This document shows, piece after piece, positions 1-35,193 of a stretch of 64,000 nt of DNA (position 1 is its first letter; each line of letters starts with the position of its first letter). A program made the position numbers and the translations under genes. Source of the stretch: a virus (Duplodnaviria > Caudoviricetes); IMG/VR virus record IMGVR_UViG_3300047576_000027, positions 32,001 through 96,000 of that record; one strand, given 5' to 3'. The notes under the pieces were generated by a model. That model was not told the DNA's origin. It searched no databases and saw only the letters and a list, made by a program, of their open reading frames with translations.

Positions 1-1109
1 GTCATGCTCGTGCTGCTTGTCGTTGGCGTGCCGAATACCTGCACCGTCCCCGCCGCGCCCGATAGCCCAAAGGCGTGCTCCGAATCTATCACGGTTTGGA
101 TCGATGCGACCAACCGGGACTCGGTGGGCATCATGGTCACCCAATCACCGTCGTTTACAGACGTGCCGAAGACGGCCGATTTTGTGGTGATGTACGGCGC
201 GTAATAAGTGACCACCAGCGCCGGGTTAGCCGAGAGGTAGTTGCCGGTTGGCAACCCGAGATTTCCAACAGAGAATTGAGTTGAGGAATCTATAGAAGTT
301 ATCGGGTAAGTGTTGTTGCCGAGGCCGGAACTTGCACCGCCAAACATGTTCACCTGGAGTCCTACCTGAAAGCCGGTGGTCGTCATCCCGGAGATGGTTA
401 CCTGAATCCTGTTTGGATTGCCCGACAGAACAGCGAGGTTCGCCACCGTCCCGCCCGCGACTGTAAAGGTCGGATTGGAGACGTAGGCCGTCGTTGGTTG
501 CGTCGTTTCGTTGGTGCAGGATGCCCCGGATGAGCCGCCGATGCCGCCGTACGCTGAGACATCGTTCAGCATCTTGTTCGCGAAATTAGTCCGCTCCGTG
601 CTGTTTAACTGCGACCAGACCAGTTCATAGGCCATGATCCACTGAGGCATCCAGTAATTCACGCCCCAGTCTGCCAGCCCTGTACCTGGTCCGTTGCCCA
701 TACAATAACCAAGGGCATCCGGCCCCGTCTCGATACAGACGAGCGCCATTGTCTTTTCGATGTTGTCGATCAGGTACTTTGCGGCTGTGAGGCTGGCCGT
801 CTGCGTGTTGTCGCAGTACCAGTTGACGGCAAAGTCGAGCGCCACCGTCCCGTCTGAACTGTTGACCAGGCTCTGCTGAGTCGTGTACGAGCCGATATTG
901 TTGCTGACGGAGTTCTGCACGGCCACCCATGCCGGGTTGGTGCTGACTCCCTTTGGGCAGGTTCCGGCGCTGTATCCGATCCGCGAGAGGATCGAACTGT
1001 TGAGCATCACTCGCGGGTGCGCCTGAACCGTGTAGCTAGTGCCGTTCAGGCTGACGGTGATCGCACTCAGGGACGGGGCGAGCGCGAGGAAGAGAAGCAA
1101 CTTTTTCAA
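1..1109 (-). CDS. Signal-peptide-bearing protein, possibly polysaccharide lyase/heparinase-like (runs off the window start)
   Basis: Not in the ORF track; read by hand. TTG start at 1109 overlaps the TGA of the upstream gene. Begins MKKLLLFLALAPSLSA-ITVSLNGTSYTVQAHPRVML and the frame stays open to the window edge. The HPR motif is typical of alginate-lyase/heparinase-type N-termini. Confidence 0.7.
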   Translation of the reverse strand, partial: MKKLLLFLALAPSLSAITVSLNGTSYTVQAHPRVMLNSSILSRIGYSAGTCPKGVSTNPAWVAVQNSVSNNIGSYTTQQSLVNSSDGTVALDFAVNWYCDNTQTASLTAAKYLIDNIEKTMALVCIETGPDALGYCMGNGPGTGLADWGVNYWMPQWIMAYELVWSQLNSTERTNFANKMLNDVSAYGGIGGSSGASCTNETTQPTTAYVSNPTFTVAGGTVANLAVLSGNPNRIQVTISGMTTTGFQVGLQVNMFGGASSGLGNNTYPITSIDSSTQFSVGNLGLPTGNYLSANPALVVTYYAPYITTKSAVFGTSVNDGDWVTMMPTESRLVASIQTVIDSEHAFGLSGAAGTVQVFGTPTTSSTSM

Positions 1110-2539
1110 TAGATCACCACCCCGGAACCAATAATCACTCCCGAGCCGACACTCGCGCCGCCGATTGACAGTCCCAAAGCCCCTATATTCGGCGGGTTGG
1201 AAGTGCTAACCCCCGCTATGTAAAGTCCTGCCGCGAGAGCGGGCGAGCCGGGTTGCAGATAAAAGTTTCCAGTTGACGGGCTTACCAGCAGAGGATTGGA
1301 TTCCACCGAATGAGAGCACCCGGTCGAGCCACAGTTTCCGGTCGCAGTTTCCCACGCTGAGTACGTGGAGTAGTATGTTCCGACTCCCCACTCAATGAAA
1401 TTGCTGGCCTGTACGCCGAAGGCATTGTACGTATAAACGTTCCCCGATCCGTCCGCGCCAGGATTCTCGCAACCGTTAGCAACGAGAAGTTGATTATTTG
1501 TATTTGCCTCGCTGATATTGTTTTTAATCAGATTGCTTTCGCAACCACCCGCCGTACTTCCCCCGTTCGGGCCTAGCACCTGTATTCCCGATCCACCGTT
1601 CCCCCATACCGTGTTGTTATAGATTTGATTCCCCGTCATCGAAGTTGCGCCATCTGCATAAGCGACGATTCCGCCTGCCCCGTTTCCATAGCTTATGTTG
1701 TAGTACGAAAGGGCATAGTTGTCTGCGTCAATTGCAATTCCAAAAACGTTGTTGTTGTAGATTGTGTTGAATCTGGTAGTGAACCCGTTGCCGACCGTAT
1801 CTGCCCAAATACCAGACCCGGTTGTGCTTACCTGCCCATTTCCGTTTGAAGCAGAAGTACTGTACTGAACGACCACATTTGTCGATGAAGATCCGGGGTG
1901 TATTTTGATTCCGGCAGCAAAAGCATCATTGCTTGTCGTGACATTGCCAATGGCTGTTGAATGCGTTACGAGTAAATTTGTGGCCTGATAGAACGCCAAG
2001 CCGCTTTCCTGATTCGAAGTCGCAGTATAGCCATTGACAATTACATTGGTGGTTGCGTCACAGCGAAGCCCCTCACCATTGTTGAGAGTTGTGATCCCGT
2101 TAAGGAACGTTACTCCGGTGCCTCCTAGAGAATAGATCCCCTTAGAAGTGGCTGCTGTCGTCTCCAGGCCGATAAAGGAAAGATATGACTGGCCGTTATT
2201 GTAAATCGCATAGATTCTAGTGCCGGACCCGGTTATGACAGGCATCGCACCAGACCCATACGATCCGAATGTGATCGGGTTACCGGATGAGCCACTGGAG
2301 GGGGGGATAAGCTCCTCTGCCCATGTGTCTCCAGACTGAAACAGTATCGAGTCTCCGGGACTAAAGGACTGCGCGTTAACGTGGGCTATAGTCTGCCATG
2401 CAGAGACTGTGCCGGTACAGTTAACTGCCGTCGCGGTCCCCGGATTTGAATCACTACCGGCAGAGGAATCTACACAGTAGGTCGTCGCGGAGAGTCTTAC
2501 TGATAACAGGATGGTTGCAATAATAGCCTGTCTCATCAT
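1106..2539 (-). CDS. Secreted right-handed beta-helix (pectin-lyase-like) protein
   Basis: Signal peptide MMRQAIIATILLSVRLSA; YCVDSSAGSDSNPGT..AWQTI..PGDSILF start; Asn/Gly-rich beta-helix repeats; C-terminal NPLLV..NFYLQPGSPA..NIGAL (choice-of-anchor-Q-like). Confidence 0.8.
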   Translation of the reverse strand: MMRQAIIATILLSVRLSATTYCVDSSAGSDSNPGTATAVNCTGTVSAWQTIAHVNAQSFSPGDSILFQSGDTWAEELIPPSSGSSGNPITFGSYGSGAMPVITGSGTRIYAIYNNGQSYLSFIGLETTAATSKGIYSLGGTGVTFLNGITTLNNGEGLRCDATTNVIVNGYTATSNQESGLAFYQATNLLVTHSTAIGNVTTSNDAFAAGIKIHPGSSSTNVVVQYSTSASNGNGQVSTTGSGIWADTVGNGFTTRFNTIYNNNVFGIAIDADNYALSYYNISYGNGAGGIVAYADGATSMTGNQIYNNTVWGNGGSGIQVLGPNGGSTAGGCESNLIKNNISEANTNNQLLVANGCENPGADGSGNVYTYNAFGVQASNFIEWGVGTYYSTYSAWETATGNCGSTGCSHSVESNPLLVSPSTGNFYLQPGSPALAAGLYIAGVSTSNPPNIGALGLSIGGASVGSGVIIGSGVVIY

Positions 2540-4266
2540 TGCTGATTCTCCAGGTACACGATGATCTCTACGCTTCCTGCAGTGAACGTGCTGACATTGG
2601 CTCCTACGTTCGTCAGATTGATCTGGATCACCCCCTTGTCAGCAACTTGCGCCTGTGGGGAGTAGTAAGCCTGCGCTGTAGTGGTCGAGGTGAGATCAAC
2701 ATAGTTTCCGGTGCCTGTATAGGTTGTGGCGCTTCCTAGAGAATTGCCAATTGTGGCGTGTGCCGAAGTTAACCCGGAAGCCGCAAAGGCTGTATCGACC
2801 CGGACGGTTATATGGCTTACGACCTGCTTCGGGAAAAGATTCTCAAGAGTCAACGTCTGTGTCAGGCCCGCAGTTGTAAAAGCAAAATACGGGACCGTCA
2901 TCTTGTACGCAAAGGGCTGGCGCATCGCATAGGCGATTCCGTTAGCTACGGTATATGATTCCGCAAGTTGCCCTGCCGTCGTCCAATGGGTTCCAATCCC
3001 GTCGCCCTGATACACATAAGTGGCGTTGGTGTTCGTTCCATACAGAGCCGGGTTGCTGTTCAGGTCGATGACGGAATCAAAACCATTGGTCCCGGCGAGG
3101 AGGTCAGACAGGACCGTTGAGCTGAGGGTCGCTGCGGCCGTTGTCTGCGCCCCGCTGTTTCTGGTTGTGTTCAGGATTGTAGGGACGATGCACTTCGCCT
3201 GTGCGTTTAAATTATGAACGCTAGTGCAGTAGTTCGTGTAAGTGGTCGCAATACTGGCAGCGGAACTGCCGTTGTAAATGTCGTTGGTTCCTCCCTCAAG
3301 AATGACGTTAATGGGACCGGTGTATCGGTTCATTATCGAGGCTACCTGCCCCGCGAAATTAGAGTACATCGTTGCCGCTGTTTCGCCACTAAGACATATG
3401 TTATAAAATGTTGAACCGCCTCCAAGAAGCTGCACCGTTGAAATGTACTCGTAACCAGCGGCCAGATTGTAATAATTCGCAGACGTTCCGTTCGTACCGT
3501 AACCGCAAGCGATGCTGTCTCCGACGAAGATGTTAACCGGTCTGTCGAATGCCAGCCCAGCGCTCTGCGGCAAATCGCCACGAGAGTAAAGGATCTGATT
3601 TGCCGCAAAGTTGTCCTGTGCGATCTGAGCAGCGGTGAGGGCAGTCGTGTATAGACGGACCATTTTAATGGTTCCGTAGAACGGGTAAGTTCCGAAAGCG
3701 CCGCCGATGTACCCCGCCGTGGTCCCGAGTGCTGAAGTGTTGCCATCTGTAATGTATCCACCGGCGGCAAGCCCGTTTATGTACAGTGTTGTCGGAGATC
3801 CAAAGACAACTGCAACTGAGGATGGCCCGACTGTCCTATCAACTGCCTCAGTCGATCCTCCTATGGATGGCGACCCCGCCTGGTATGCTGGAAGCTGAAG
3901 GCCGCTTCCAGTGATCGGATAAACCAGAGCTTCGGCGGTCGTAGAAGAGTTAGAAGCGAACCCGGAGAACGTAGGCGTATACCAGACTTCAATCGTCTGG
4001 ACACCATTCATCGATGGGATGCTCCAGAATCCCGCTCCCCCAACAAAAACAGTCCCCAACGTGTTTGTAGTAGGTGTTCCTCCACCGGACCAGGTGCCAG
4101 CGTTACTATTGCCACTCGAATCTGGCAAGGTAGTGGTGCTGGCATCTACCATATCGTAATAAGCCAACAGCCCAGAGTTTACAAATTGGGCATTCGCCGC
4201 CACCATAGTCGCAGTTTGTCCGTGTGCCGGTATCGCCAAAACGAAAAGAAGAAGTAGTTTTTTCAT
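2536..4266 (-). CDS. Secreted LamG/ConA-like lectin plus SGNH/GDSL esterase
   Basis: Signal peptide MKKLLLLFVLAIPAHG; LamG-like LLAYYDM..DSSGN..FYGTIKMVRLYTTALTAAQI; SGNH blocks FVGDSI, SGETA, GGTNDI, DGIGTH. Confidence 0.8.
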   Translation of the reverse strand: MKKLLLLFVLAIPAHGQTATMVAANAQFVNSGLLAYYDMVDASTTTLPDSSGNSNAGTWSGGGTPTTNTLGTVFVGGAGFWSIPSMNGVQTIEVWYTPTFSGFASNSSTTAEALVYPITGSGLQLPAYQAGSPSIGGSTEAVDRTVGPSSVAVVFGSPTTLYINGLAAGGYITDGNTSALGTTAGYIGGAFGTYPFYGTIKMVRLYTTALTAAQIAQDNFAANQILYSRGDLPQSAGLAFDRPVNIFVGDSIACGYGTNGTSANYYNLAAGYEYISTVQLLGGGSTFYNICLSGETAATMYSNFAGQVASIMNRYTGPINVILEGGTNDIYNGSSAASIATTYTNYCTSVHNLNAQAKCIVPTILNTTRNSGAQTTAAATLSSTVLSDLLAGTNGFDSVIDLNSNPALYGTNTNATYVYQGDGIGTHWTTAGQLAESYTVANGIAYAMRQPFAYKMTVPYFAFTTAGLTQTLTLENLFPKQVVSHITVRVDTAFAASGLTSAHATIGNSLGSATTYTGTGNYVDLTSTTTAQAYYSPQAQVADKGVIQINLTNVGANVSTFTAGSVEIIVYLENQQ

Positions 4267-7031
4267 TGTCCTATCACCAGAATTTCACAACTTTCCGCTG
4301 TCATTGAAGCATTCGAGGGCAAAGTCAGCGTCGTAGTACTCGGCGACGGCGGCGGGAAAGATGTGCAGCCGGTTCCGTAAGTCATCAGTGGCACCTGAGC
4401 AAACGGAGTCAGGAAAGCGAACGTCCCTGCCGATCCTGTTTGCGCATAACCGTTGAGAGCGCACGTCACCATCTTCTGTACGCCGTTGAGGCCCATTGAG
4501 CACTGCGCGGTGCCGGATGTGCCGGTGAAGTTAGAGATGAAGGGCATTGGATTGACGCTTGCCGCGCTTGTCGTATACGTGCTCGGTATATCCGTGCTCG
4601 TGGTGCGGACGTAAGGCCCGCACGTTGACCCCAGTTCCAATTGAGCACCCGACATGTAGATCGTCTGGCCAGTAGTTCCGGTCAGTACCTGCCAGCCGCG
4701 TGATCCGTCGCTTAACTGCCCCGTGTAGCAGTACCATGTTGGGGTAGTCGTGAGCGTGTGAGTTTGCCCGTGAGTATCGTCTATGCCGATAGACAGGGAC
4801 TCGCCGCCGACCGCGCCGCGCGCCCGAATAGAAGCTGAGTACGTAAGTCCCGATGTCACTGGCAGAGAATATTCCAGCCAACCCGTGCAGGTGCTACTGG
4901 TGAGAAACTTGAGCGACGTGTAGGTGCCCCAGATGTCCTGGTAGTCTGTGGAATTTGCCGTGTAAGTGCAGGGAGTTCCTGAGAAGTACCCGTACGGAAA
5001 CCACGGGTCAAAATTAAGAGTTCCGGGATCAAACTGGGAGTACGTCAGAAGATTGCTCATGTATCCCTGCCCATATGATCCGTTGGGGGTAACGATTTGT
5101 CCCTGGCTGTTGACAACGAACTGATTCGATAACCCGGCATTGAGCGTGCTTGCCTGAAGCAGATTTATATCCAGCGTCCCCGTGCAGTTGTTCACGCCGG
5201 TGACCGTGTTCTCTATGCAGGAGTTCACTGACGGCGTGCTCACCGTCGTGGCGAACGACTCCCGAATTTTGCTGGACACCACGGCACCGAGGGAGTTTGT
5301 TTCGCCGTCCCCGACGTAGTTTTGTTCCATTGTGCTGGTGTAAAGTTCGACGCCTGCCGTGGACTGCGCAAAGTAGGTTCCGTACGTTGCGGAATTGAAG
5401 TGAACGTCCTTGATATCGATGTCGGCAACTGCCGTTCCGCTTGGCCCGTCGAAATTGATGACCCGGAATCCGCCTTCCTGTGCGACGTTATCGACTTCGG
5501 TCCTGTTGTGCCCGGTGTTGCCGCTCGTGCCCTTGTTCCTGAACGTGATGCCCGTGCCGGCTGATCCGGTGCTCATGTAGCCGTTCAGGTAGTGGTGCTC
5601 CCCATAACTGGAACTTGTCGAAGCGTCAACGATGAGGACGTGACTGGTCGTGGTCATGCTGAAATCGTTGAAATGGAAGCCGTCAACCCAAATGTCAAGG
5701 TTGCTCTCCGCAACTGATGGCAGACCGCCGCCGACGCCGAGATCGTCGTAGCCGGACGTGTACCAGGCGTAGAGAGCGCCGCCGCCGTTGTTGAGATAAA
5801 CACTCGGGTTTTCCCAGTGATCTTCTTCAGAGGCAATCGAGTAAATGGCGGCCACTGAAGCGGTTCCCTCAAAGCTGCAATTCCGGAAGTTGTACTTGCC
5901 CGCGAAACTCGTCGGAGAAGCTGTCGGCCTGCCGAGCAGCAAAATCACCTTCGGATAAATCACCGAAGAAGTTATGGTGGACTCGAAATTCATCTGGTCG
6001 ATATCGACCGTGTAGGCACCGACGAAAGTGAACGCCGCCGGTTGACTACCACCAGTTTGCGGTTCGTAGTCCAGATAGCATCCTGAGCCGTGGCCACGGA
6101 TGTTCATCTTGTTCAGGGCACCAAAATTTACCGGCGAGTGAACCACGTACACGCCTGCGGAAACAGTGCAGGGGAAGTAAAGAGTCTGGCCCTCGGTCAA
6201 AGCGGCAATCGCATCGGCTATGGGGGTATCGTTATTCGTACTCCCGTCCGAGATCGCCCCGAAGTCCTCAACGCTTACGAGTTGTCTCTCCTTCGCCTGA
6301 ACTCCCTGCGGAACCGCCCCGGACCCTGCCGCCGTGAACTTGCCCAGCGGGTAAGTGCCGGTGCTGTCCAGTGTGTTGAGCACTCCAGAGACGTTGCAAA
6401 TGAACTCCGCGCCGGCCGGAACCGTACCCGTACAGGTGCCGTTCGTGAGGCCGAAGATTCCACTCGTACCGCCGAACCACGCGAGTGCTGGAGGTGTTGC
6501 ACCAGTTGCGATAGAGGTTGCCGAGAATGGCTCCGTGGTCGAGACGGCAGTGCCGTTATCGGTGATGCTGGATGCGATTGCGCTGCCTGCGGAATTACCC
6601 TTGAGGACGCTGGCGGTACTGGCTACATTTGCCCCATTGCCAGACAGACAAAAGACACTGCCGATGTATGAGAAGAGGTACGTGGTCCCGGCCACAAGTC
6701 CGCCAGAACCAACGGGCGTGCTGCAATTCGACTGGTCAAGCTGGACGGGACCGAGTCCCGCTACGTTCAGGGTTGAAGTTCCCGTATTCGTGTTGTTGGG
6801 GACGAATGAAACGATCAGGCCGGTCAAAGTCGTCACGGTCGGTGTCGGTGTCGGGCAAGTGTAGGTTGTAGTGCTGGCACCCGCAGAAGAACAAGCGGTG
6901 TTGTTGCCTGATCCAGGAGGGCCAGGCGTTCCCCCGCTGCCCCCCGGCGGGTTAATGATGACCTGTCCAAACGCCAAAGAAGCGAATATCAGCCCGAATG
7001 CGACCTTTCTTGCTCCCACGTTTATTTCCAC
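4263..7031 (-). CDS. Tailspike/tail-fibre-like protein with signal peptide (start may be GTG at 7019)
   Basis: Signal peptide RKVAFGLIFASLAFG-Q; tail-fibre N-domain GLIVSFVPNNTNTGTSTLNVAGLG; tailspike neck and beta-helix start VQAKERQLVSVEDFGAISDGSTNND; CBM-like C-terminal domain NLLTYSQFD..GAQLELGS..PYVRTT. Confidence 0.8.
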   Translation of the reverse strand: MEINVGARKVAFGLIFASLAFGQVIINPPGGSGGTPGPPGSGNNTACSSAGASTTTYTCPTPTPTVTTLTGLIVSFVPNNTNTGTSTLNVAGLGPVQLDQSNCSTPVGSGGLVAGTTYLFSYIGSVFCLSGNGANVASTASVLKGNSAGSAIASSITDNGTAVSTTEPFSATSIATGATPPALAWFGGTSGIFGLTNGTCTGTVPAGAEFICNVSGVLNTLDSTGTYPLGKFTAAGSGAVPQGVQAKERQLVSVEDFGAISDGSTNNDTPIADAIAALTEGQTLYFPCTVSAGVYVVHSPVNFGALNKMNIRGHGSGCYLDYEPQTGGSQPAAFTFVGAYTVDIDQMNFESTITSSVIYPKVILLLGRPTASPTSFAGKYNFRNCSFEGTASVAAIYSIASEEDHWENPSVYLNNGGGALYAWYTSGYDDLGVGGGLPSVAESNLDIWVDGFHFNDFSMTTTSHVLIVDASTSSSYGEHHYLNGYMSTGSAGTGITFRNKGTSGNTGHNRTEVDNVAQEGGFRVINFDGPSGTAVADIDIKDVHFNSATYGTYFAQSTAGVELYTSTMEQNYVGDGETNSLGAVVSSKIRESFATTVSTPSVNSCIENTVTGVNNCTGTLDINLLQASTLNAGLSNQFVVNSQGQIVTPNGSYGQGYMSNLLTYSQFDPGTLNFDPWFPYGYFSGTPCTYTANSTDYQDIWGTYTSLKFLTSSTCTGWLEYSLPVTSGLTYSASIRARGAVGGESLSIGIDDTHGQTHTLTTTPTWYCYTGQLSDGSRGWQVLTGTTGQTIYMSGAQLELGSTCGPYVRTTSTDIPSTYTTSAASVNPMPFISNFTGTSGTAQCSMGLNGVQKMVTCALNGYAQTGSAGTFAFLTPFAQVPLMTYGTGCTSFPPPSPSTTTLTLPSNASMTAESCEILVIGQ

Positions 7032-7411
7032 GTGAACGACACCCCGTCTCCGCTGTTTGTGGCGTCAATGTAAATCTGCCCGAGGTTCCACGACTGCGCA
7101 TTCCCAATCGGATTGCAGGCGTAGGAAGCTCCCGGCTGCCCTGCGGTGAGGGGTGGCCCGAGTGGCGTCCCTTTCTTGTTTGCCGCTGATACCCCGCTGT
7201 CGAAGCCGATCCATATCGTTCCCGAATTTGTAGAGTTCGCGGTGATCGTGCATACCGTTGCCATCGTCGGCGGATTGGTGACGTAAAGTTGAACCGGAAC
7301 GCCAGACGTGGTAACGGTGGTCGATCCCTGGTGAACAGCCTGAGCGAAAAGGGAGGCAACGAAAAGGGCCAAAACGCAGAAGGATCGGGCGCGATACATG
7401 GCACGGTACAT
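7022..7411 (-). CDS. Small beta-sandwich virion-type protein with signal peptide
   Basis: RARSFCVLALFVASLFA-QA, then an all-beta domain (ITANSTNSGTIWIG..GTPL..NLGQIYID) like the small jelly-roll proteins found before phage fibre genes. Confidence 0.6.
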   Translation of the reverse strand: MYRAMYRARSFCVLALFVASLFAQAVHQGSTTVTTSGVPVQLYVTNPPTMATVCTITANSTNSGTIWIGFDSGVSAANKKGTPLGPPLTAGQPGASYACNPIGNAQSWNLGQIYIDATNSGDGVSFTWK

Positions 7412-9423: not shown

Positions 9424-9824
9424 GTTGCACAAAACCGAGGTTTTTCTATCCTGATCTCCCATGCTTGCTCCCCGATGGCCATATTGGGCCTTGCCACGTC
9501 CCAGGTAATACACCGAGTGCTGTTGTTGCCAGTCCCGAGCCCGTTCCATATGACGGTAATGCAGAAACTCACGGCCATACTGGTCCAGAATACGCACGCG
9601 TCGCGCTTCCTTCCAGCGTCCAGTTAGACCACCTGGAAGAAATCTGCGCCCTCTACGACAAGGCTTTTGGCGACTACCCGGAGCATGCCCATGAAGGAGA
9701 TTACGTCTTTCGGTTTATAAAAGCAGTCGTAGCGGCAGAGTCTGTCGGAGAAATTGACTACGCTGATCCGGATGCCACGATGAACATCATGCGGTCGATT
9801 GCCAACAGTCTGTTCTATGAATAA
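9420..9824 (+). CDS. Hypothetical protein with N-terminal CLLPDGHxGxxH motif
   Basis: ATG overlaps the GT4 stop (ATGA); Cys/His motif common in small phage proteins. Confidence 0.5.
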   Translation: MSCTKPRFFYPDLPCLLPDGHIGPCHVPGNTPSAVVASPEPVPYDGNAETHGHTGPEYARVALPSSVQLDHLEEICALYDKAFGDYPEHAHEGDYVFRFIKAVVAAESVGEIDYADPDATMNIMRSIANSLFYE

Positions 9825-13567: not shown

Positions 13568-13804
13568 TCACTCGCACTGAATGGTGTTCTGGTTGAACTT
13601 CTTCTTTTCACACGCCTTCGCACCATCTTCGTAGGCTTTGTTCAATTCAGCCGCCGCGGAGTCATACTGGGCTTTGGCGATAAAGTAGTTGCGCTGCGCA
13701 ATGGCGATGGACGTTCGTATCTTATCCGGAATCACCGGCAACGCTTCTTTGGTTTCCTGAGCGAACAAAAGAGAACCGAGGAAAAGAAGGCAGAGTATGC
13801 GCAT
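13568..13804 (-). CDS. Small secreted helical protein
   Basis: Signal peptide MRILCLLFLGSLLFA-Q; helical body; C-terminal Cys pair. Confidence 0.65.
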   Translation of the reverse strand: MRILCLLFLGSLLFAQETKEALPVIPDKIRTSIAIAQRNYFIAKAQYDSAAAELNKAYEDGAKACEKKKFNQNTIQCE

Positions 13805-14199
13805 TATTTCATTACCAGCCCAGCGGCTTTCCGCGTCGACGTCGCTACGAGATCCTCAACCGTGAAAGATGTATTCGTGACCGGGCCACCGAGGTTAACC
13901 AGCACGCCCGTGTAGCCTTCCGGGTTATCCAGCCTGCCCGTCACTCCGGAAATGGTTCTGACGGTTCCGTCCGCAAGCGTGCCGGTTACAGAATACGCAT
14001 ATCCAAGGACGGCCGAATTCTGCGTTCCGATCAGGAGAATATATTGCTCATTGCCGGGGACGAAGCCGTTGCAAAGTCCTTGGGGGGGCACTGCTGACTC
14101 ACACAGTTGCCACGGACCAGCGGCTATAAGGACCATATCGGAATTTTGGGAGATCGCGGGACTTGCAGCGATAAAAAGAAGGGAGACAATGGTTTTCAT
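13804..14199 (-). CDS. Small secreted beta protein
   Basis: Signal peptide MKTIVSLLFIAASPAIS-Q; Cys pair; TAGGTT -10 hexamer 7 nt upstream of the ATG. Confidence 0.65.
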   Translation of the reverse strand: MKTIVSLLFIAASPAISQNSDMVLIAAGPWQLCESAVPPQGLCNGFVPGNEQYILLIGTQNSAVLGYAYSVTGTLADGTVRTISGVTGRLDNPEGYTGVLVNLGGPVTNTSFTVEDLVATSTRKAAGLVMK

Positions 14200-24864: not shown

Positions 24865-25800
24865 TTACTGCCTGAAAAACGCCCGCCTGATGAGGTTTGG
24901 CGGCAACGCCCCCGTGGAACTGCCAGAAACACTTGCACTCCCGCTCAGTGTCACCGGGTGCGTATGTGGCTCTGCGGGTACGGTCGCGCCAGTACCCGAC
25001 ATGACCGTTTGAGTCCCGCTGTCATTGCCGGTACTCCCGCTGACCAGTGCGCTTCCGGATGCCGTCACCGTGCCGTTCGTCGCGGCATTCAACCCGCTGT
25101 TTGCAGCTCCGTATTCAAGAAACACCCCGGTAGGCGATACTCCGGAAATGTTCGGCAGCATGACGCTCCCGATAGTGCCGTCCGATTTCAGGTAATTGTG
25201 CGCTGCGCCATCGTAAAGCGCCCATCCAGTGCCGGGATCTACCTCAAACGGGACCGGACCCATCCCGCTACCGGATTCTCCCGGTCCCCATTGCCATCCC
25301 GATCCGGTCCATCGCAGGACATGCAAATAATCGGTAACGCTCACCAGGAGTCCCGCGTGGACCGCAGAAAGTGATCCTGCGAGAGCGGTGAGTTGGGACT
25401 GGGTACGGTACAGGGTTCCGTCCATGTATGCCCACGAGAACGTGGCTCCCGCCGTGTAACGGAAAAGCACTCCGGAGTCGCCAGTGGTCGGCGCAAACTC
25501 AATTACAAGTCCATCCTGAGCATAAGGTGCTCCCGTTGTGGGATTGTTGTTCGGAACGGTCGCGAGGGCTGGAACGAATGCGTACTGGGGGCCTGATGCC
25601 GTCCCGCTTGCGCCCTCTATCGAGTCGGCAGTGATGTTTTGGACTATGGTGGTTGTGGTAGTGGTCGAGGTGGCCGCCGCCGCCGCGGCGAGAGCGTTAT
25701 TAGCTGCGCTGATGGCGGCATTTGTCCTGTCGTACAGGTCTGAGATATTCGCCTGATAAGGGCCTCCGGGAATGGTCAGTCTGGCGGGAGGGAGGGGCAT
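24865..25800 (-). CDS. Short tail fibre / collar protein (no signal peptide)
   Basis: HVLRWTGSGW; collar-like PGTGWALYDG..MLPNI; C-terminal PHTH..LPPNLIRRAFFRQ. Confidence 0.6.
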   Translation of the reverse strand: MPLPPARLTIPGGPYQANISDLYDRTNAAISAANNALAAAAAATSTTTTTTIVQNITADSIEGASGTASGPQYAFVPALATVPNNNPTTGAPYAQDGLVIEFAPTTGDSGVLFRYTAGATFSWAYMDGTLYRTQSQLTALAGSLSAVHAGLLVSVTDYLHVLRWTGSGWQWGPGESGSGMGPVPFEVDPGTGWALYDGAAHNYLKSDGTIGSVMLPNISGVSPTGVFLEYGAANSGLNAATNGTVTASGSALVSGSTGNDSGTQTVMSGTGATVPAEPHTHPVTLSGSASVSGSSTGALPPNLIRRAFFRQ

Positions 25801-25808: not shown

Positions 25809-28800
25809 TTAGGTCTTAAAAACTGCAAGTGAAATATAACTATCTTCCACCCATTGTTTTGTCTCTATCGTGAAGTCATCAGTAAACAGGGCGAAGTTCA
25901 CACCGCCACCGTCCAGCATGTACGCTGCGGACAGAAATTTAATTGCCTGTGGGAGCATTTGTTCCTGGATCATGAACTGGCCGCCAGTTGAGGGTATAGT
26001 AACCACGAAAGACACTCCGTTTTGCTGCTGAATGGTGAAGGTAACAGGAGCGGTACTTATAAGTCCAGCGTATAATCTTTTGTGTGTTTTCCATCCCGGA
26101 AAGGCTAATGAAATGAACTGCGTCAGTACTCTTGTACTCAGAAAAGGCTGAATGTAAAAAGCAGGCTCAACGGCATATATACGTGGTCCGTCAGGACCGC
26201 CGCTCCAACTGAGTTTGATGGATATATTCCGGTACAAAGCCAGTTCTCCCGGCACCGAGGAAATATTCACGATATTTTGCTGTCGCGCCGCGACGGAAGT
26301 GACGTTGACAACAGGCGAGTTAATTGAATTGTTGTTATAAAACTGAGCAGTCGCGATAACTCCCGCCTGATCTGAATCCACTATCCAGTCAGTAGGTAAC
26401 TTTTGTGTTCTTTCATCCCCCCCATCCAAAGAAGGAATCTGCAACAAAGAATTTATCGTCGCCCCATTGTCCGTATCGCCGCCGACCTGGTACAGATTCC
26501 CCAATGTCCGCGATAACTGGATAATCTGCATATTATTCGGTGAGTTTACCAGCCCCTCAACCAGATACTCGTACGACATCGGATCGTTGAATGAATGCGG
26601 AAACCATCGTTTCTTCGGGATCTCGAAGCGGAACGTGACCTGATTGCCCTCGGTGTCCAGATACAAAAAACTAATCTCGTTATCAAGACACGACAACCGC
26701 ATAAACGAAGTCTGCGTCATGTCCACCGGATAGAGGCCGTTCGTCACCGCTGCGGGTTGTCCTTCGTGAGGAAACAGCGGGTAAAGTTTTGGATCGGTGA
26801 CATTTTCCCCCGCCCTGATCGGTCCAGCGATAAATCCCGTCGCGCCCGATGGCATACGCCCCATCTGGCCCCCGGCAGATTCCCCATTTGCACCAGAACC
26901 CGGAAGGCGACGGGAGCCGGACGAATTGGTACGGCGACTGACCCTCCAGCGCCTGGATAAAAGAATAGCGGACGAGAAAGGTGTTTAGTCGTGATCCGGC
27001 AAACACCAAACCGTTCCATACTTCGCCGGTCACCAGCGGTTCACTGGGTCCGGAAAGTTCGATGGTATTCTGGTCGCTCACACCATCGAGATTGGCGGTA
27101 TTTGTGAAATAGAGCGTCCCCGCATTTACCAGGTCTCCCAACCCGAATGCCACAGGGGCAAAGGGGCCTTCCAGTGGCCCGAATACAATCGGCAACGGCT
27201 GGTTGGCGAGCGTAGGCGACTCGATGGAATAAGCGGCATTTGTCAGTACGCCAGCGTCTGACTGGATCTCAAGGTACGCGGGTGAATGCGGTTGCCCGCG
27301 TGTCAAATAAGCTACACCATTCAGCAGTATGATGGAATTCTGCAATAGATTGACATTGAACGTCGTACCGCTCACCCAGATGACCGAAGTGCCCACCACG
27401 TTCACCACGCCCGTCCATGCCAGTCCGAGAGTCGGCCACGGCTGAAGTTGGGTCAGATCGGGCGATGGGTTGGTGGCTATGGTTTCATCGGCCAGCCCGT
27501 CCGTGAACGAGTTCGGACTGGCGTTGTTGTTCTGCACCGACCCGACATAAACGAATTCGGTGAGTGTTCCGCCCTCGCGGTAGATGTCCGAATAATCGAC
27601 TCCGCCTGCTGTGGTTGTTGCCGGGGTGGCTACTATCGACTCCCGAAGCGGATCAAGCGAATATCGGGTTGTCGGCCCCGGAACTGAGAGTGCCCCGGTT
27701 GAGGAATCGCGGAAAACTGAATCGTAGAAGTACCCCGATGGCGCATTCGGCTGGATTACCGGCCCGTACGTACCGAAGAAATACCACCAGTCAAATCCCC
27801 AGTTGCAGACCCCCGTGGAGACGATTGTTATCCCGACCGCCTGAACGGCGGAAAAATCAAGGGCCAGATTGCCTCCGTTTTGAATCCCCTGCGAGATCGG
27901 AATGACGATTTCGCCCCAGACCCCGGCACTGTTCTGTCCAAATGAACCGAGATCCTTCTGCGTTAGATTCCATTGCCAGAAGTTGCCCGTGAACGGTGTT
28001 CCGCCCGTTGCTGTCGCGGGGTCAATATCAATCAACAGCGTAAGCGTAGCGACGGTGAGAGGAGTTTCAAGAAACAGCGAGATATGCAGGTAATCGTTCG
28101 CGGGGTCGATGGTCCGGCCGTTTGCGTTCAGGCAATTGACCGGCGACCCGAACTTGATCCGGGCCGTGCCCGTCCCCGCCGCCGATCCCGAGTATGCGAT
28201 GAAATTGAACAGCGATGTTATGGTTTCCGTGGTGGCGTGTGCCAGTGCCGTGTAACAGTACCAGGAAAGCAACCCCGTCACGACTGATCCGGCACCGGCG
28301 GCGAAGGTGTGGACTGTTGAGCATCGCACCGAATAGGCGGTGCCGTCCGGTGAAAGAACGACGGAGAGAACGCGAATCACGTCTGTATGTGTTCCGTCTG
28401 CAATCTGAATAAGGGAGTTCCTGTCCAGACCGCCCGGCAAGCCGTTCAGCACCAGAGAACACAACCCGGTCGATCCTGAGTCGTACTGGATAGCCTGCAC
28501 ATAGGAGGTCGCGATGGGGGTGTGAATCTCGCGAATCGTAACCGTTTCCTGGTTCCCGCCGCCTGAGTTGAGGACGATATTCATCCTCGCCCCGGTCCAG
28601 TTTGTTACGCCCGCAGACGGATTGATACATGCCCATCCCGCCGTACCTGAGTTGTAAAGGATATTCGCGATGGTGAATGCCCCGCCGTTGGTACGATCCT
28701 CGCCACCAGTGATACTCACGAAAGGGAGGGAAACGGTCCAGCCTACCGCCGAATTACCAGTCTCGACGGCGACGGATGCCGGGATGCCGAAATCGATGTT

Positions 28801-29265
28801 CGGGGCAGCATTCGGCGGGGTTACCCCGATTGCCCTCAGCGTCCCGTCCGCGCGGACTTTTACCTGCTTGTCCTGGTCGTAAACATACATCCACGATTCG
28901 GGTGAATTGTTGGGACGAAACGGGATCAGAGATAAAGGATTACCGGAGTAGCCAGAATCGATCTCGGCCAGAGCGGTTTCCTGGCCCTCCCACAGTTGAG
29001 TGCCGTTGCCGACAATGTAGGTGTAACCGGATGATACAAGGGATTCGTCCGGGTCGTTCAGTCGGCGGATTGAGTGCAGGAGTTTCGGGCCTCCGACGCC
29101 GGCTCCGAAAACCGAATAACCTGGCCGACCGTCGATTCGGCCTTCAGAGATGACTCTTGTGTTGAAAAGGTAGGGGAATGAACCTGGCGGCATCCGGTCT
29201 ACCGGATGCACGAGGTCTATGCCGGAACAATCCATCCGGACCGGCAGTCTTTGAACTTCGGGCAA
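25809..29265 (-). CDS. Tail nozzle / tail tubular protein B, interrupted by a frameshift at 26803-26811
   Basis: ORF 26683..29265 (GIDLVHPVDRMPPG..NTRVISEGRIDGRPG; propeller-like LYFT..AIGRDGIYRW) joins ORF 25809..26864 (ENVTDPKLYPLF..KKRWF..) if one G of GGGGGAAAA is skipped; about 1150 aa in total. Confidence 0.8.
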
Positions 29266-29298
29266 ATTTCAGTTTAGCGGATTGTCCGTCAGCAGTTT

Positions 29299-29448: not shown

Positions 29449-29625
29449 TTCACCCTCCACTTATGGGAACGACGGGGACTGATGACTGTCAATCGCCCAC
29501 AAGAGACGCATGTGACACAGTAGTTTTCAGGGGGCCATACCCAGACGTGCGTGTACCCACAATGACAGCATCGGAGCATTCCGTAGGCCCACTTCTCATC
29601 GTGGTGACGATGGGTCACTTCACCC
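29443..29625. repeat. 13-bp direct repeat GGTCACTTCACCC flanking the Zn-ribbon gene
   Basis: Exact copies at 29443-29455 and 29613-29625. Confidence 0.85.
29445..29618 (-). CDS. Small Zn-ribbon protein
   Basis: GTG start overlaps the upstream TGA; CCHCG..CVSCG. Confidence 0.55.
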   Translation of the reverse strand: MTHRHHDEKWAYGMLRCCHCGYTHVWVWPPENYCVTCVSCGRLTVISPRRSHKWRVK

Positions 29626-30949
29626 CCGCCATCGGCCTGATATCCGGTCGCATCCCTTCTTCGCGCTGCCACTGGCCGAAAAGCGGTTCAAAGTATTTTA
29701 TCTTCGCGGCGTTTACGCCCTTCCGCGTCGAAACGGCACGCATGAAGTTATCGTACAGTTCCATCGTGGCCTTGAGTTCCGTACCGCCGCACTTAACGAG
29801 CAGATAATTACAGCAATAATCGATAACGTCCTGAAGGTTTTCTTCCCCGATCTGAAGGTATTGATTTGCAGTCGGCAACGGTGCCGGGGTCACCACGTCG
29901 GCACCAATGGAATAGGGTTGATCGACCGCGCCAGGGTTAATGACAGCGAAGTCGTAGAGGATACCAGCCATCTGCGGAATCCCGATCTGGTTGCGCCAAA
30001 ACGGGCACCCGGCATCGATGGCGGCCAGAGAATCGATCAGCAACGGATTTCCGTTACAGGTGAGCCGAATGATGGAACGGGCATCGCGGGCGAAAGCTAC
30101 CGCCTGCTTGTAGCGCTGGGATGCATATTGGGCACGGAGGGGATCTACGATCTGATTCCCGCCGGTCAGAATTTCCTCCATCGCCGCATATTTGATGGCG
30201 TAACACCATTCGTCCGGCACACCGATCAATGATGCGGGATTGGTAATATCAATCAGCAACGAATCGACCGTCACCGCTTCCAGTGTCCCGGCATTGAGCG
30301 GCGGGGGATACATCTGCAATACGAGCGGTGCAAGTTCGGCTTCCGAGTACGCCAGCGGCGCGCCGGGATCGACTTCCCATGCCTCGCTGGAATGGTCGAA
30401 CATCCATACGTCGTCGCGCCATAGATTCGACCATGCGCCGCCCGAATCCTGCCACGAGACACGGTGAACGAATACCGATGACTGGTCGAAACTCACGAGG
30501 CCGTTGGGTGGGGATACCGGTTCAAAATCGAAATGGACAGCGTTCGGGAAGTGTACGTCCAGGATGAATCTGTTCCGGGCACGCTGGATCGCTCCAGGGA
30601 TTGCAGATATCGGGACTTGCCCCGATGCATTCGCACCCGAGATGCCACTCGCCGGTTCGAGAAGGTGGTATTGAATCTCAGTTGTGAGTTGAGAGAGCGT
30701 CGTGGTCCGCGAGCGCAGAAGCGGGAGTTTTTGGCTCAGGTCGTAGAATGGACTGCGATCAGTCGGGCGAGCGTTAAAGGACCCTCTTTGACGCCAGAAA
30801 CTTGTGAGCGAACCAAAGACGCGGAGAGCCTCGTAGATTGCGTATGTGATTTCCGGTACAGTCCAAAAAACGGCGCTAGAATCATCGAGTAAAGAGGATA
30901 TCTGCGATATCAACTGCGTCAGCGTGATCTGACTGTAGCCGCTCGGCAC
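29615..30949 (-). CDS. Head-tail adaptor / tail tubular protein A-like
   Basis: ITLTQLISQISSLLDD..FWTVPEITYAIYEAL; LQMYPPP; IGVPDEWCYAIKYAA. Confidence 0.7.
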   Translation of the reverse strand: MPSGYSQITLTQLISQISSLLDDSSAVFWTVPEITYAIYEALRVFGSLTSFWRQRGSFNARPTDRSPFYDLSQKLPLLRSRTTTLSQLTTEIQYHLLEPASGISGANASGQVPISAIPGAIQRARNRFILDVHFPNAVHFDFEPVSPPNGLVSFDQSSVFVHRVSWQDSGGAWSNLWRDDVWMFDHSSEAWEVDPGAPLAYSEAELAPLVLQMYPPPLNAGTLEAVTVDSLLIDITNPASLIGVPDEWCYAIKYAAMEEILTGGNQIVDPLRAQYASQRYKQAVAFARDARSIIRLTCNGNPLLIDSLAAIDAGCPFWRNQIGIPQMAGILYDFAVINPGAVDQPYSIGADVVTPAPLPTANQYLQIGEENLQDVIDYCCNYLLVKCGGTELKATMELYDNFMRAVSTRKGVNAAKIKYFEPLFGQWQREEGMRPDIRPMAGVK

Positions 30950-31239: not shown

Positions 31240-31273
31240 ATTGAGTTCTCCTGTTTTAGAGTTTAGCGCAATG

Positions 31274-33094
31274 TCAATTACAGAACCACCCTGTATAGCC
31301 GTAAACATAAGTGCAATCCACGCTGCCCAATGCAGGTACGGTGGCATTGAGAACCGTCAACGGAGAAAAGGTCGTATTGATAAACGTGATCCTCCTTTGA
31401 TCCCAGCCGCGCGCTATAGAGGTTAAAGCCGTGCTGCCCGTAAGTCCGATAACTGCCGGATCGAGTGGGCCGGGGTCGAACGATGCGGCACTGGCCATAG
31501 TGGGAACGGTTGGTGCTCCGACATTATTTGCATAGACCCTATACGGGGTGGTTGACGAGTCCGTGAGGGGGCCGTTCGCATTTCCGCTGAGTTGGTTGCC
31601 GGTAACCGACCAGTTTGACACTCCAGAACCAATCGCAATACCGTAAGACTGAGTCGTTCCAACGTCGTAATAAGAACCGTTGAACTGACCACCGGTTATG
31701 TTCAAGCTCGTGACATTCCCTGCTGCGTACAGGCCATCGTACACGCCAATGCTGGCTATGCTGTTGCCAAGCGACCAAGCCCCGTTAATGGTGATGTTTG
31801 TACCTCCCAGGATGTCAAACCCGTGGTGGCCGTTTATCACCGACTTATAGTCGGTAAATTTTATCTGCGAAATCGTCCCCGTGCTGCCAATGTAAACCCC
31901 GTCCTGCGTGGCGCAAGCCGACGCTGAATTCGCGAATATCCAATCGTTAACTATCCCCCCTGGCGGCGGGTTGATTACAAGCCCCTGCCCCGGATTGCAG
32001 TCCAGATAGACATTTATCCAGTTGCCAAATCTGGCAGTCTGGCCGCTCGGCGGGTCAATGAGAGCATCCTTGCCGCACCCGGTCACGTAGGTATTAGTGA
32101 TATCTTCCGCAGCGTCGCCAAGGATGTGGATGCCAATGCTCGTCAGGCCGACGTCCGTACAGGCGATCTGAATGTTATTGAGGAATGTGTTGCCGCCGTT
32201 GTCTGCATTAAACGTGATTCCGTCCCCGTTGTTGTACAGGATCACGATATTGTCCCAGGTGCCACGCTGGGTGATCTCCCCCGTTTGGTAAATCCCGTTG
32301 TTGACGTAGTCAATGTTTATGTTTTTGAGGTTCAACTGAGCTTGATTATTGATATAAATTCCCGTGTTCGTATTAGATGTGGCAGGTCCGATAATTCTGA
32401 GATTCTGAAGGCAGTTGCCCTGTCCGACGCCGCCTGGAGAATGGGGGCCGTCCTCGAATATGATATTGCCGGTGGAAGGACCGAGCCAATTCAGGACTAC
32501 TGCGGGGAACGTTGAAACGCCCGACACGCACACGCCTTGTCCAATAATGGATATCTGACCGTATATATTCCATGTTCCTGCCTGGACTAAAACGTTACCG
32601 CCAGATGGTATTGTCGTCGCTGCCTCTTGAATTCCTGCGGATGCGCTTTGGACAGTCCATTGCCCGCTGTGACTGTTGGCGCAGGTCATGATAATGGTCC
32701 CTGAAGGTGCGCCAGACACGGCCGTTCCGCCCGTGACAAGACAAGATTCCGGAGTGCCAGTTCCACCGGAAGCATACATGTAGTAATTAACGTTTGTTCC
32801 GTTGACGCCGGGAGGGACTGGCCTTAGAGTGATGGAGTTTGAGCCCGGGTTGAGAGTCCCGCCTGGAGCCTGCGCCGCGAAATTAAAGTTGCTCGCGATA
32901 ACGCTTCCCTGCCCGGCGATTACCTGGCTGTAGAGATTCGCGAAATTGGTATTGATCGTGGCCCTGGAGTCGCTCACCAGCTCCGTTCCCTGTATGACCG
33001 TGGGCGGCGGGGGAGTCTGCGAAAATGCAGGCCACGCTAAAATAAGGGTTGCCGCTATGGATGCTGTAAGTCTGGTCAAGGCGTCAGTCTTCAT
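31274..33094 (-). CDS. Tailspike-like beta-helix protein with signal peptide (paralog 2)
   Basis: Likely start MKTDALTRLTASIAATLILAWPAFS-Q; anchor motif ELVSDSRATINTNFANLY; GIQEAA..GGNVLV followed by beta-helix repeats. Confidence 0.8.
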   Translation of the reverse strand: MKTDALTRLTASIAATLILAWPAFSQTPPPPTVIQGTELVSDSRATINTNFANLYSQVIAGQGSVIASNFNFAAQAPGGTLNPGSNSITLRPVPPGVNGTNVNYYMYASGGTGTPESCLVTGGTAVSGAPSGTIIMTCANSHSGQWTVQSASAGIQEAATTIPSGGNVLVQAGTWNIYGQISIIGQGVCVSGVSTFPAVVLNWLGPSTGNIIFEDGPHSPGGVGQGNCLQNLRIIGPATSNTNTGIYINNQAQLNLKNINIDYVNNGIYQTGEITQRGTWDNIVILYNNGDGITFNADNGGNTFLNNIQIACTDVGLTSIGIHILGDAAEDITNTYVTGCGKDALIDPPSGQTARFGNWINVYLDCNPGQGLVINPPPGGIVNDWIFANSASACATQDGVYIGSTGTISQIKFTDYKSVINGHHGFDILGGTNITINGAWSLGNSIASIGVYDGLYAAGNVTSLNITGGQFNGSYYDVGTTQSYGIAIGSGVSNWSVTGNQLSGNANGPLTDSSTTPYRVYANNVGAPTVPTMASAASFDPGPLDPAVIGLTGSTALTSIARGWDQRRITFINTTFSPLTVLNATVPALGSVDCTYVYGYTGWFCN

Positions 33095-33108
33095 CTCTTG
33101 TTTTCGCC

Positions 33109-35193
33109 TTAAAAGGTGGTAAGTGCCGACCGTTTCCAGGTGTTCGTCGCCGTGCAGACGTAAAAATACGAGGTGTCCCAAACCGCCGTTCCCGTTATGC
33201 ACGTGCTGGAGCTGCTGGGAGGGGTTGCAAGAGGTTGATTAAAAACCCCGGTAATAGTCAGGTTTCCGGCACTGTCCACGATCAAAGGCGAAACCAACCC
33301 CGATCCTGTCTCGAACACCGCGTTCAGTTTTCCACCTATCGGCCCCAACCACCACACCCCGCTGGCAGTCGTGCTACCTCCTATGGAGAAGATCAAGTTT
33401 GATATATTCCCTGAGGCCGAACGGTCAACCAGCAGGCTTGATGCCGATTGTCCGGAACCGAAAATAGAAGACGGGCCAGTTGTCGTGACGAGCGGAGCCT
33501 GCAACGATACGCTTGCATTTACTGTTTGCGGGTATTGCACACCATCGCACTCGTAAACGCCGTTTAAAACTGACGTCCCAATACCGGACGGAAACACGCA
33601 TCCCCACCCGACTCCGCTGTTGGCTCTCACCTGGTTCCAGTCGTTATTTGTGACCGAGATAAATGTCCCTGCCCCGCTTCCCTTGTCATCGGTCCTGTTC
33701 CCAATTATTGTGGCGCGCGCGCTCTGCACGTTTATGGTCGGGTGAGTATAACTCGTGTTGCCCTGCCTGAAAAAGTGCCCGTCATTAACGATAAGACTTC
33801 CGCCCCCGGAGGTTGAGTCGCTGATGCTTGATATGTCGGCAGCCAGAGTCCACATCCAGGCATTAGTTATCTGTAAGTCCATCTCTCCATCCCCCGACAG
33901 CAAAACCAGAGGGCTGGAACCGGCAGTGCCGCCAGGATAGAAGAAGAAGTTTGTCGCCTTGACGTTCGTTGGTTGCCCCGGACAGCTTGAATTGGATACG
34001 TTCAGAACGGGAATGGAACCCAAGCTCCCCTGTGAAAAGCTGGTATTTGTGAACTCGTAGAATCCGCAGGTGATGTTTATATCGCCGTTGGTGTCAACCG
34101 TGGTGTTTACGAAGTGTGCGGGGAATGCCCACCCGCCAGATCCGACTACCGAATTGTATCCGCCGACCGAGTGAATCGAATAGGTGAAGTAATCAGTAAC
34201 ATGCAGGTCGTCTGCGCGCCCTATGTAAAGACCGTATATGTTGTTGGACAAATTTGTGAACGCGCTCAGTTGATTTGCTGTCATTTGATTCGCGACGGTT
34301 CCGTAAGGCCAAAATCGGACTTTGTCCAGATAAGTAGAGTCTGCTGCTCCGTCGATCTGAATCCCCTTGTCAAACATCGATGCCTGTAGATTTGTAATGG
34401 ATGAGCCGCCCGCCTCAGCCCTCATGTCAACAACGTCCCATGCCAAAAAGACGCTTACATTGGTAATCGAAAATCTGGATACACCCTGAAAATAGAATGT
34501 TGGTGGCCAGTGGGTATAAAGGGAAATATTCGTCGAATCCGGTTGCGCATAAGTTACATTGAAATCGTGTACAACACAGCCGAATCCGGCAAAAGGAGCA
34601 CCGATAAACAGACCTTGCACGGTCAGGGGAAAATCAGCAGCAACCGTCAACGTCGTCGTCCAGATACCTTGCCCTCCAATGTTTTGATTTAGAGGGCAGT
34701 AAACCGGCCCGTGTATGGTCACCGGAGCGGTGATCTGCACGCTGGTATTGCCCGCGGCGATGGCTTCAGGGAGTCCTCCCGCAACAGACCGGACTGACCA
34801 TGCTCCGCTATGTGAATTGGCCGCAATGAACGTTATCGTCCCGACAGATGCCCCCGAGATGCACGACCCGCCAGTTATCATATCGGACTCGGCATTCCCC
34901 GACCCGCCATAAAAATATAGCCAGTGGTCCGTGTCGTTTCCATTGACGCCCTGGGGACACGGAGACAGTGTGACTATGTTGAAGCCGGGGGAAATGGTGC
35001 CGCCCGGCATCTGCGGCGTAAAATTGTAGTTCTGGGCGGCTACAATCGGGAGACTGAGGAACTGATTCTCCAGGTATGCGAAATTATTGTTAATAATCGT
35101 GGGGCCGTTGCTGATGAGGTCGTTGGGCTGAATAACCGTTATCTGACCTGCCGCCACAGATGAAAACAACAATGCCAGAACAATCTTTTCCAT
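33109..35193 (-). CDS. Tailspike-like beta-helix protein with signal peptide (paralog 1)
   Basis: AGGAG SD, MEKIVLALLFSSVAAG-Q; anchor motif DLISNGPTIINNNFAYL; beta-helix; C-terminal CITGTAVWDTSYFYVCTATNTWKR fibre motif. Confidence 0.8.
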   Translation of the reverse strand: MEKIVLALLFSSVAAGQITVIQPNDLISNGPTIINNNFAYLENQFLSLPIVAAQNYNFTPQMPGGTISPGFNIVTLSPCPQGVNGNDTDHWLYFYGGSGNAESDMITGGSCISGASVGTITFIAANSHSGAWSVRSVAGGLPEAIAAGNTSVQITAPVTIHGPVYCPLNQNIGGQGIWTTTLTVAADFPLTVQGLFIGAPFAGFGCVVHDFNVTYAQPDSTNISLYTHWPPTFYFQGVSRFSITNVSVFLAWDVVDMRAEAGGSSITNLQASMFDKGIQIDGAADSTYLDKVRFWPYGTVANQMTANQLSAFTNLSNNIYGLYIGRADDLHVTDYFTYSIHSVGGYNSVVGSGGWAFPAHFVNTTVDTNGDINITCGFYEFTNTSFSQGSLGSIPVLNVSNSSCPGQPTNVKATNFFFYPGGTAGSSPLVLLSGDGEMDLQITNAWMWTLAADISSISDSTSGGGSLIVNDGHFFRQGNTSYTHPTINVQSARATIIGNRTDDKGSGAGTFISVTNNDWNQVRANSGVGWGCVFPSGIGTSVLNGVYECDGVQYPQTVNASVSLQAPLVTTTGPSSIFGSGQSASSLLVDRSASGNISNLIFSIGGSTTASGVWWLGPIGGKLNAVFETGSGLVSPLIVDSAGNLTITGVFNQPLATPPSSSSTCITGTAVWDTSYFYVCTATNTWKRSALTTF

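Follow-up and report, generated by a model that had tools for sequence, protein, structure and literature searches.

In the standard view, a tailed-phage virion is assembled entirely within the cytoplasm. The tailspikes of P22, Sf6, Pam1 and Pan3 are cytoplasmic proteins with no leader, and the P22 tailspike binds finished heads. Among phage-encoded Sec substrates, filamentous phage pIII and the Shiga toxin subunits of Stx phages acquire disulfides as they fold in the periplasm. Filamentous virions, which assemble at the membrane during extrusion, carry pIII as a receptor-binding protein; Stx leaves the cell at lysis and forms no part of a virion. The proteins described here differ from both in being candidate tailspikes of a tailed phage. 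The phage of this study shares with the P22-type tailspikes (P22 gp9, Sf6 gp14, Pam1 and Pan3; PDB 2vnl, 7sg7, 8eb7, 7eeq, 9vyg) an N-terminal head-binding sandwich, a beta-helix body (in the model of gene 35193, listed below) and a gene location beside the adaptor and nozzle, but it adds a cleavable predicted leader and position-specific Cys pairs. Leaderless cytoplasmic synthesis is not what we found in this phage, as all of its large tailspike candidates carry leaders.

Tunturi 1 and 2 (PP887698, PP885685) possess terminase, portal, capsid, adaptors and nozzle homologous to those of the phage studied here, although the core proteins are only 22–28% identical and the genomes measure 63 kb against 107 kb. 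In Tunturi 1, gp12–14, gp16 and gp17 have leaders and lie between adaptors, and gp12 contains the same head-binding module as our phage. The published description of Tunturi 1 and 2 mentions neither signal peptides nor virion proteomics, and records clear plaques and no annotated integrase for Tunturi 1 (PMC11924767). One 400-aa gene in the early region of Tunturi 1 is labelled 'tail protein'. The fibres of Tunturi 3, whose host strain is the same as that of Tunturi 1, are leaderless; the leaders are therefore a trait of the phage lineage.

Three further systems resemble parts of the locus. In the Cellulophaga podovirus phi18:3, gp85–87 (KC821620) begin with a leader followed by Q and carry the GenBank note 'structural protein, MS/MS proteomics', with the leaders unremarked in the record. 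This phage infects a Bacteroidota host and its proteins have few Cys; the likeness to our phage is one of features, and its structural note could reflect co-purification. Pantoea stewartii WceF is an exported trimeric tailspike-like beta-helix that keeps a P22-like head domain and does not bind virions (PMC7949094). It is chromosomal, Tat-exported and off the virion, whereas the leaders here are of Sec type and sit on phage genes in a tail operon; the setting of an exported exopolysaccharide (EPS) enzyme is found not for the phage genes but for some of their relatives. The closest published parallel found is a set of Porphyromonas gingivalis prophage genes without assigned function, which encode a signal peptide followed by Gln and, in the available part of the report, are read as envelope modifiers, with no tail proteins named there (PMC10367356). 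Within the titles and abstracts searched, a scope that most subscription literature lies outside, we found no reports of Sec-exported tail proteins and no tailed phage for which this export route is described.

The phage is uncultured and comes from peat metagenome runs. The window, the whole 64,000-nucleotide stretch analysed, covers bases 32,001–96,000 of a 107,603-base virus record (a podophage of ~107.6 kb). A capsid search matched only Tunturi 1 and 2, podoviruses of Acidobacteriota, among cultured phages; Sulfotelmatobacter accounted for two of four genome-bin matches, and the best-named homologues of the 2539 protein belong to Terracidiphilus and Sulfotelmatobacter. On these grounds the host is probably acidobacterial. 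The genes that concern us are the following, the leader-bearing ones being named by their start coordinates.

1..1109, minus strand: 1109, leader-bearing protein, 5' part in the window, C-terminal tail as in 2539
1106..2539, minus strand: 2539, leader and right-handed beta-helix, 477 aa, short Gly-rich C-terminal tail
2536..4266, minus strand: 4266, leader, LamG lectin and SGNH/GDSL esterase, 576 aa (PF13472, PF13385)
4263..7031, minus strand: 7031, tailspike-like protein, 922 aa, leader, Q at +1, 19 Cys
7022..7411, minus strand: 7411, small beta-rich protein with leader
13568..14199, minus strand: 14199 and 13804, small leader-bearing proteins (131 aa, 78 aa), one mature Cys pair each
14253..16496, minus strand: 16496, fibre/spike, 747 aa, leader 1–18
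24865..25800, minus strand: 24865, fibre/needle candidate, 311 aa, leaderless, zero Cys
25809..29265, minus strand: nozzle-like gene, leaderless, interrupted near 26807 by a one-base frameshift
29615..30949, minus strand: adaptor 2 (30949), SU10-adaptor family through homologues, no leader
31274..33094, minus strand: 33094, paralogue of 35193, 606 aa, leader 1–25, Q at +1
33109..35193, minus strand: 35193, tailspike-like protein, 694 aa, leader 1–16, Q at +1
35208..37775, minus strand: adaptor 1, a ~416-aa adaptor duplicated in tandem, leaderless
39606-40805: capsid, PHROG family match
43799-45814: portal, PHROG family match
49368-50672: terminase, PHROG family match

A sequence-only reading of the window had proposed that ten minus-strand genes start with signal peptides, often followed by Q, and that the core virion genes and 24865 lack them. 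Basic-hydrophobic-small-residue (Sec-type) N-termini are indeed present in all ten genes at the starts given above. Leaders were called by a strict von Heijne-type rule, not by a trained predictor; applied to 8,895 internal positions the rule fired at 0.11%, and among shuffled N-termini at 1.2%. Nine of the ten genes satisfied it; the exception, 2539, failed solely from an Arg at −4 and has close homologues with clear leaders. The rule called no leader in any of 16 genes for the virion core and for packaging, a set that takes in capsid, portal, both adaptors, nozzle and 24865. The h-regions are short, small residues occupy −1 and −3, and Q stands at +1 after the predicted cut in seven of the ten. 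As a class, leaders are conserved in dozens of contigs and in a cultured phage; some sister phages have leaderless orthologues.

Start codons situated downstream of the hydrophobic segment could in principle have produced the same pattern. No start codon lies near the cut in 16496, 33094, 35193 or 2539, none occurs from the leader end to residue 40 or later in 2539, 33094 and 35193, and 7 of 11 relatives have none within −5 to +8 of the cut; one homologue, L013, has an ATG at +1. For 7031 the start may be the GTG at 7019, and the leader is kept with both starts. Downstream true starts were therefore rejected as a general explanation. Sec-type leaders are real and lineage-wide.

Evidence on the fate of these proteins comes from related phages, of which ~90 loci were compared (locus scans with the single proteins 35193 and 30949 gave no matches). 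In alignments, the predicted cleavage site falls within ~1–3 residues of Met1 of the leaderless orthologues. A Cys pair in the head-binding module is present in 18 of 19 leader-bearing copies and in none of 10 leaderless ones, a count in which a few start sites were set by eye. On the capsid tree the leader state changes at least eight times, and all six supported independent pairs are concordant for leader and Cys pair (6/6, p=0.031). On the module's own tree both states are mixed and a single leaderless clade is not rejected (p-AU 0.118); allele swapping is therefore possible, and the six pairs may represent swaps of two allele types rather than independent origins. Leader-bearing and leaderless alleles do replace each other among close phages. 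The stalk domain of 35193 and 33094 follows the same trend, with two or more Cys in 67 of 76 leader-bearing proteins against 12 of 62 leaderless ones, in a set called with a relaxed leader rule that miscalled at least three proteins. Within phage loci the corresponding figures are 8/8 leader-bearing and 0/5 leaderless copies, the domain using alternative Cys pairs; the stalk-domain tree offers one supported pair and has no power.

The association of these proteins with cysteine had been noted before as paired Cys in many of them. What stands of that claim is the position-specific pairs linked to the leader. Total Cys density (0.7–2.1% in the large leader proteins against 1.3% in adaptor 30949 and the portal) gives no separation, and three leader-bearing proteins have odd counts; bulk density and parity were accordingly rejected as discriminators. 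As read from their sequences, three phage protein families occur in putatively exported and cytoplasmic versions. The covariation of leader and Cys pair, together with cleavage sites in register, makes it very probable that the leader-bearing versions are exported to an oxidising compartment and fold there with disulfides, as the sequence-only reading had suggested.

Attachment to the virion is a separate question, and the head-binding module speaks to it most directly. Its fold was predicted on an insert-less homologue, P0172 (pLDDT 82), standing in for the N-module of 16496. The top five rows of a Foldseek search of PDB were phage tail or neck structures, and a search of BFVD reached N-termini of viral pectate-lyase spikes (E 5e-7). 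The head-binding domains of P22, Sf6 and Pam1 matched at Z 6.5–7.4, values that pilins reach as well and that are nonspecific alone for a common transthyretin/CnaB sandwich. As the fold is common, the structural match needs synteny to carry weight. The module adjoins adaptors or nozzle in many related loci, with leader present or absent, and the slot between adaptor and nozzle holds a leaderless copy in L009 and leader-bearing copies in L012 and L013; 16496 and 7031 themselves lie downstream, outside the adaptor/nozzle cluster. Sequence matches of the 16496 module are to tailspike N-termini, and the module resembles the head-binding domain of Pan3 spikes as well. Predicted fold, sequence and synteny agree that the 16496 family has a head-binding sandwich domain, as the earlier reading had it; in 16496 this P22/Pam1-like domain spans ~aa 19–190, has a small domain inserted and bears the leader-linked Cys pair. 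In many copies of the module the mature N-terminus starts with R-x-R, a motif that can hinder Sec export when it stands just after the cut.

The two leader genes previously placed between adaptor genes are 35193 and 33094, and both do sit between adaptors 1 and 2. Mature 35193 comprises an INxNF helix, a ~100-aa Cys-paired stalk/insert domain, a right-handed beta-helix and a C-terminal phage tail domain. Its predicted model is a right-handed beta-helix with VIA Z 31 to AlgE4 and phi29 gp12 and Z 25–27 to many tailspikes; the tail matches phrog_17312 (E 9e-8) and the C-terminus matches cyanophage virion proteins. In 33094 the INxNF helix is followed by a stalk domain whose Cys pair is unlike that of 35193, and by a probable beta-helix. 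The ~100-aa domain that the two share beside the helix occurs in 1,371 clusters; among the best 150 of these a leader was called by rule in 69, with Gln at +1 in 51 of the 69. The candidate INxNF anchor has one PDB match, a weak one to the N-terminus of a T4-like baseplate gp10 (E=0.3), and none in PHROG, and here it is confined to leader-bearing proteins. Profile searches did not bear out a suspected adaptor–spike fusion, P0067.

The VSVEDFGA neck of 7031 precedes a probable beta-helix and matches tailspikes of Sf6, Klebsiella and E. coli phages (best E 7e-5), in line with its earlier assignment; the 'tail-fibre N-domain' claimed for the same protein drew no phage match. PDB sequence searches with 35193, 7031 and 1109 gave no match. 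The family of 7411 has 43 members, six with a leader, and is mostly leaderless and found in head/tail regions of related phages. The 2539 protein is 40–55% identical to host-type secreted proteins, and one homologue lies among Wzy and glycosyltransferase genes (an EPS locus) on a 696-kb contig. The full 1109 gene encodes 1,094 aa (genome 29825-33109, extending past the window) and has no Pfam or PDB match; 1109, 13804 and 14199 returned no family matches. Tailspike or anchor features are confined to four of the ten genes (16496, 7031, 33094 and 35193), and no virion anchor was seen in 1109, 2539, 4266, 13804 or 14199, so the ten genes form two classes.

No large leaderless tailspike was found in the phage genome. 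Its only leaderless fibre/needle candidate is 24865, which has no Pfam or PHROG match, and apart from the nozzle, cement, ejection protein and 24865, every long protein of fibre composition in the phage genome and the Tunturi 1 structural arm bears a leader. We infer virion attachment because of this absence and because the leader proteins of phi18:3 are annotated as virion proteins detected by MS.

We therefore favour, with a probability of roughly 0.55, the reading that exported spikes attach to virions afterwards. In such a podovirus of Acidobacteriota type, head, adaptors and nozzle would be built in the cytoplasm and the tailspikes sent through host Sec. Signal peptidase I would cut the leader and leave an N-terminal module as at the start of leaderless orthologues, and the spike chains would fold and form disulfides in the periplasm, as the Cys-pair covariation suggests. 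Anchor-bearing spikes (16496, and probably 33094, 35193 and 7031) would reach the adaptor/nozzle collar and bind it when the two compartments are mixed by holin lesions or by lysis; docking at lysis is plausible for these four. The phage endolysin, a soluble lysozyme that lacks a SAR domain, is encoded beside small membrane proteins; such an enzyme would imply large holin lesions and is consistent with periplasmic spikes meeting particles. The proteins 1109, 2539, 4266 and the small ones would be captured host-type glycan enzymes or lectins, released at lysis or hung on spikes. The phage would be likely to gain stability from the disulfides and the freedom to recruit secreted host domains that cannot fold in the cytoplasm. 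The sequence-only reading had offered action on the lysogen surface as an alternative, which is weakened: in the annotated part of the phage genome only a resolvase-type recombinase and no integrase was seen, and Tunturi 1, with the same leaders, has clear plaques and no annotated integrase.

The explanation that survives best besides attachment is export without any place on the virion. In that case glycan lyases, esterases and lectins in the periplasm or at the surface would either thin the host capsule so that progeny can leave or block superinfection, and the head-binding domain would persist solely to help folding or trimer formation, by analogy with WceF. That enzyme is itself a precedent (PMC7949094), and exported tailspike-like relatives exist on chromosomes, two of them in apparent EPS loci. 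Of 400 acidobacterial genomes, 5 encode stalk-domain proteins with leader and Cys pair, and phage reference genes had no match within ~10 kb of them; the 2539 family is host-type, its relatives chromosomal and one within an EPS locus, and five of the ten genes have neither anchor nor phage-family link. For the spikes, however, the leader-bearing module fills the very adaptor–nozzle slot used by leaderless orthologues in sister phages, shows ~50% conservation across the two classes and seldom occurs in chromosomes (besides the centre genome, 2 of 400 acidobacterial genomes), and an off-virion role would leave the phage with one 311-aa leaderless fibre. As an account of the whole set it is unlikely; for 1109, 2539 and 4266 it is the likeliest reading, and a soluble role is no less likely than attachment for the class without anchors.

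We consider it improbable that there are two pools, part of each spike escaping export through an internal start, a weak leader or slow translocation and assembling in the cytoplasm, with a different task for the exported pool. The replacement of leader-bearing and leaderless alleles among close phages, the Arg-rich mature N-termini and the ATG at +1 in L013 would suit such an arrangement. Against it, a start codon close to the cut is missing from most genes, and the Cys pair is gained strictly together with the leader, which implies that selection acts on the oxidised form. Still more doubtful is that the leaders are uncleaved anchors holding spikes in the inner membrane or in vesicles, for membrane maturation or vesicle travel. 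Cleavage in this analysis is a prediction alone, yet the short h-regions, the small −1/−3 residues, Q at +1 (7/10 genes, 51/69 homologues) and a cut in register with the leaderless Met1 all argue against it. It is scarcely credible that the rule-based prediction has picked up N-termini that are hydrophobic by chance or produced by faulty gene calls, given a background of 0.1–1.2%, class-wide conservation in dozens of contigs and a cultured phage, and the Cys-pair covariation.

The analysis tested whether leader and cysteine pair switch together on the capsid tree, whether the cleavage sites are in register and whether any large spike lacks a leader. We regard the chances as even that the results describe a tailed-phage lineage with Sec-exported, cleaved, disulfide-bonded spikes added at lysis, leader and Cys pair being switched gene by gene. 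Sister phages with and without the leader provide a natural comparison, and the cultured Tunturi 1 makes testing cheap. Should the spikes never join the virion, infection by a large soil-phage lineage would still involve the secretion of tailspike-like enzymes. If export followed by attachment is true, signal-peptide filters would misclassify real virion proteins as secreted accessory genes, phages could wear disulfide-rich, host-derived glycan enzymes, and the addition of spikes from the periplasm would tie virion assembly to the timing of lysis.

The small domain inserted in the N-terminal module of 16496 (window 16110-16320), a leader-bearing gene with a P22/Pam1-like head-binding domain, is similar both to a domain in adaptor 1 (aa 45-125) and to one in the nozzle proteins P0179 and P0183. 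In two loci the head-binding module forms almost the whole of a short protein:
L076:4560-5108, leaderless 182-aa protein, nearly the head-binding module alone
L085:13369-13917, leaderless 182-aa protein, nearly the head-binding module alone
Both loci share an order in which this protein is followed by the adaptor and then by long leader-bearing fibres, and the leaderless protein might serve in the cytoplasm as a socket that receives the exported fibres. An acidobacterial chromosome (L125:6080-16518) encodes a 1,538-aa leader-bearing protein containing the module, flanked by ORFs judged by eye to be capsid-like and adaptor-like; this is possibly a domesticated prophage cluster.

Similar Gly/hydrophobic tails of ~18 aa terminate the leader-bearing beta-helix protein 2539 (window 1106-1160) and the 1,094-aa leader-bearing protein 1109 (genome 29825-29880). 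Related phages have this type of tail on leader-bearing proteins that lack an anchor, and some homologues of 2539 have it too, whereas a PPxNL-type tail closes most of the host-type homologues. The ~18-aa tail could be a docking or trimer tag.

Further leader-like genes, three in number, lie outside the window (L100) near lysozyme and holin-like genes:
genome 15677-16324 and 19537-20667, three leader-like genes
A Pfam search of these three genes returned no family above the cut-off. Four leader-bearing genes in a row, which share domains with 2539 and with the tailspike-like protein 35193, accompany a resolvase on a 43-kb contig (L098). No matches to the tail genes of this phage were found near them, and the contig may represent a different kind of element.

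Interspersed with the exported genes on the plus strand are four glycosyltransferases and two methyltransferases (window 8239-13499 and 16681-17394), none with a leader. The set is kept in L008, and its possible targets are DNA, the virion or a host glycan.

One additional base near 26807 breaks the nozzle gene (window 25809-29265) into two ORFs. We attribute this split either to misassembly or to a mutation in the strain, because the nozzle is a single ORF in relatives and the base is absent from a related strain (run X3). The large terminase is encoded by two genes (window 48439-50672), a split kept in most relatives; it is unsplit in the cultured podovirus Tunturi 1, L028 and L094. Adaptor 1 (window 35208-37775) is a diverged tandem duplication of 855 aa, compared with about 416 aa in relatives; its halves share about 66% DNA identity, and contigs from other runs also span the duplication. 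In relatives, adaptor 2 carries an N-terminal fusion partner that has no leader and is beta-helix or lectin-like:
L082:15323-18568, adaptor 2 fusion
L083:13852-16569, adaptor 2 fusion
L090:10516-13212, adaptor 2 fusion
These fusions may provide another route to displaying glycan-binding modules.
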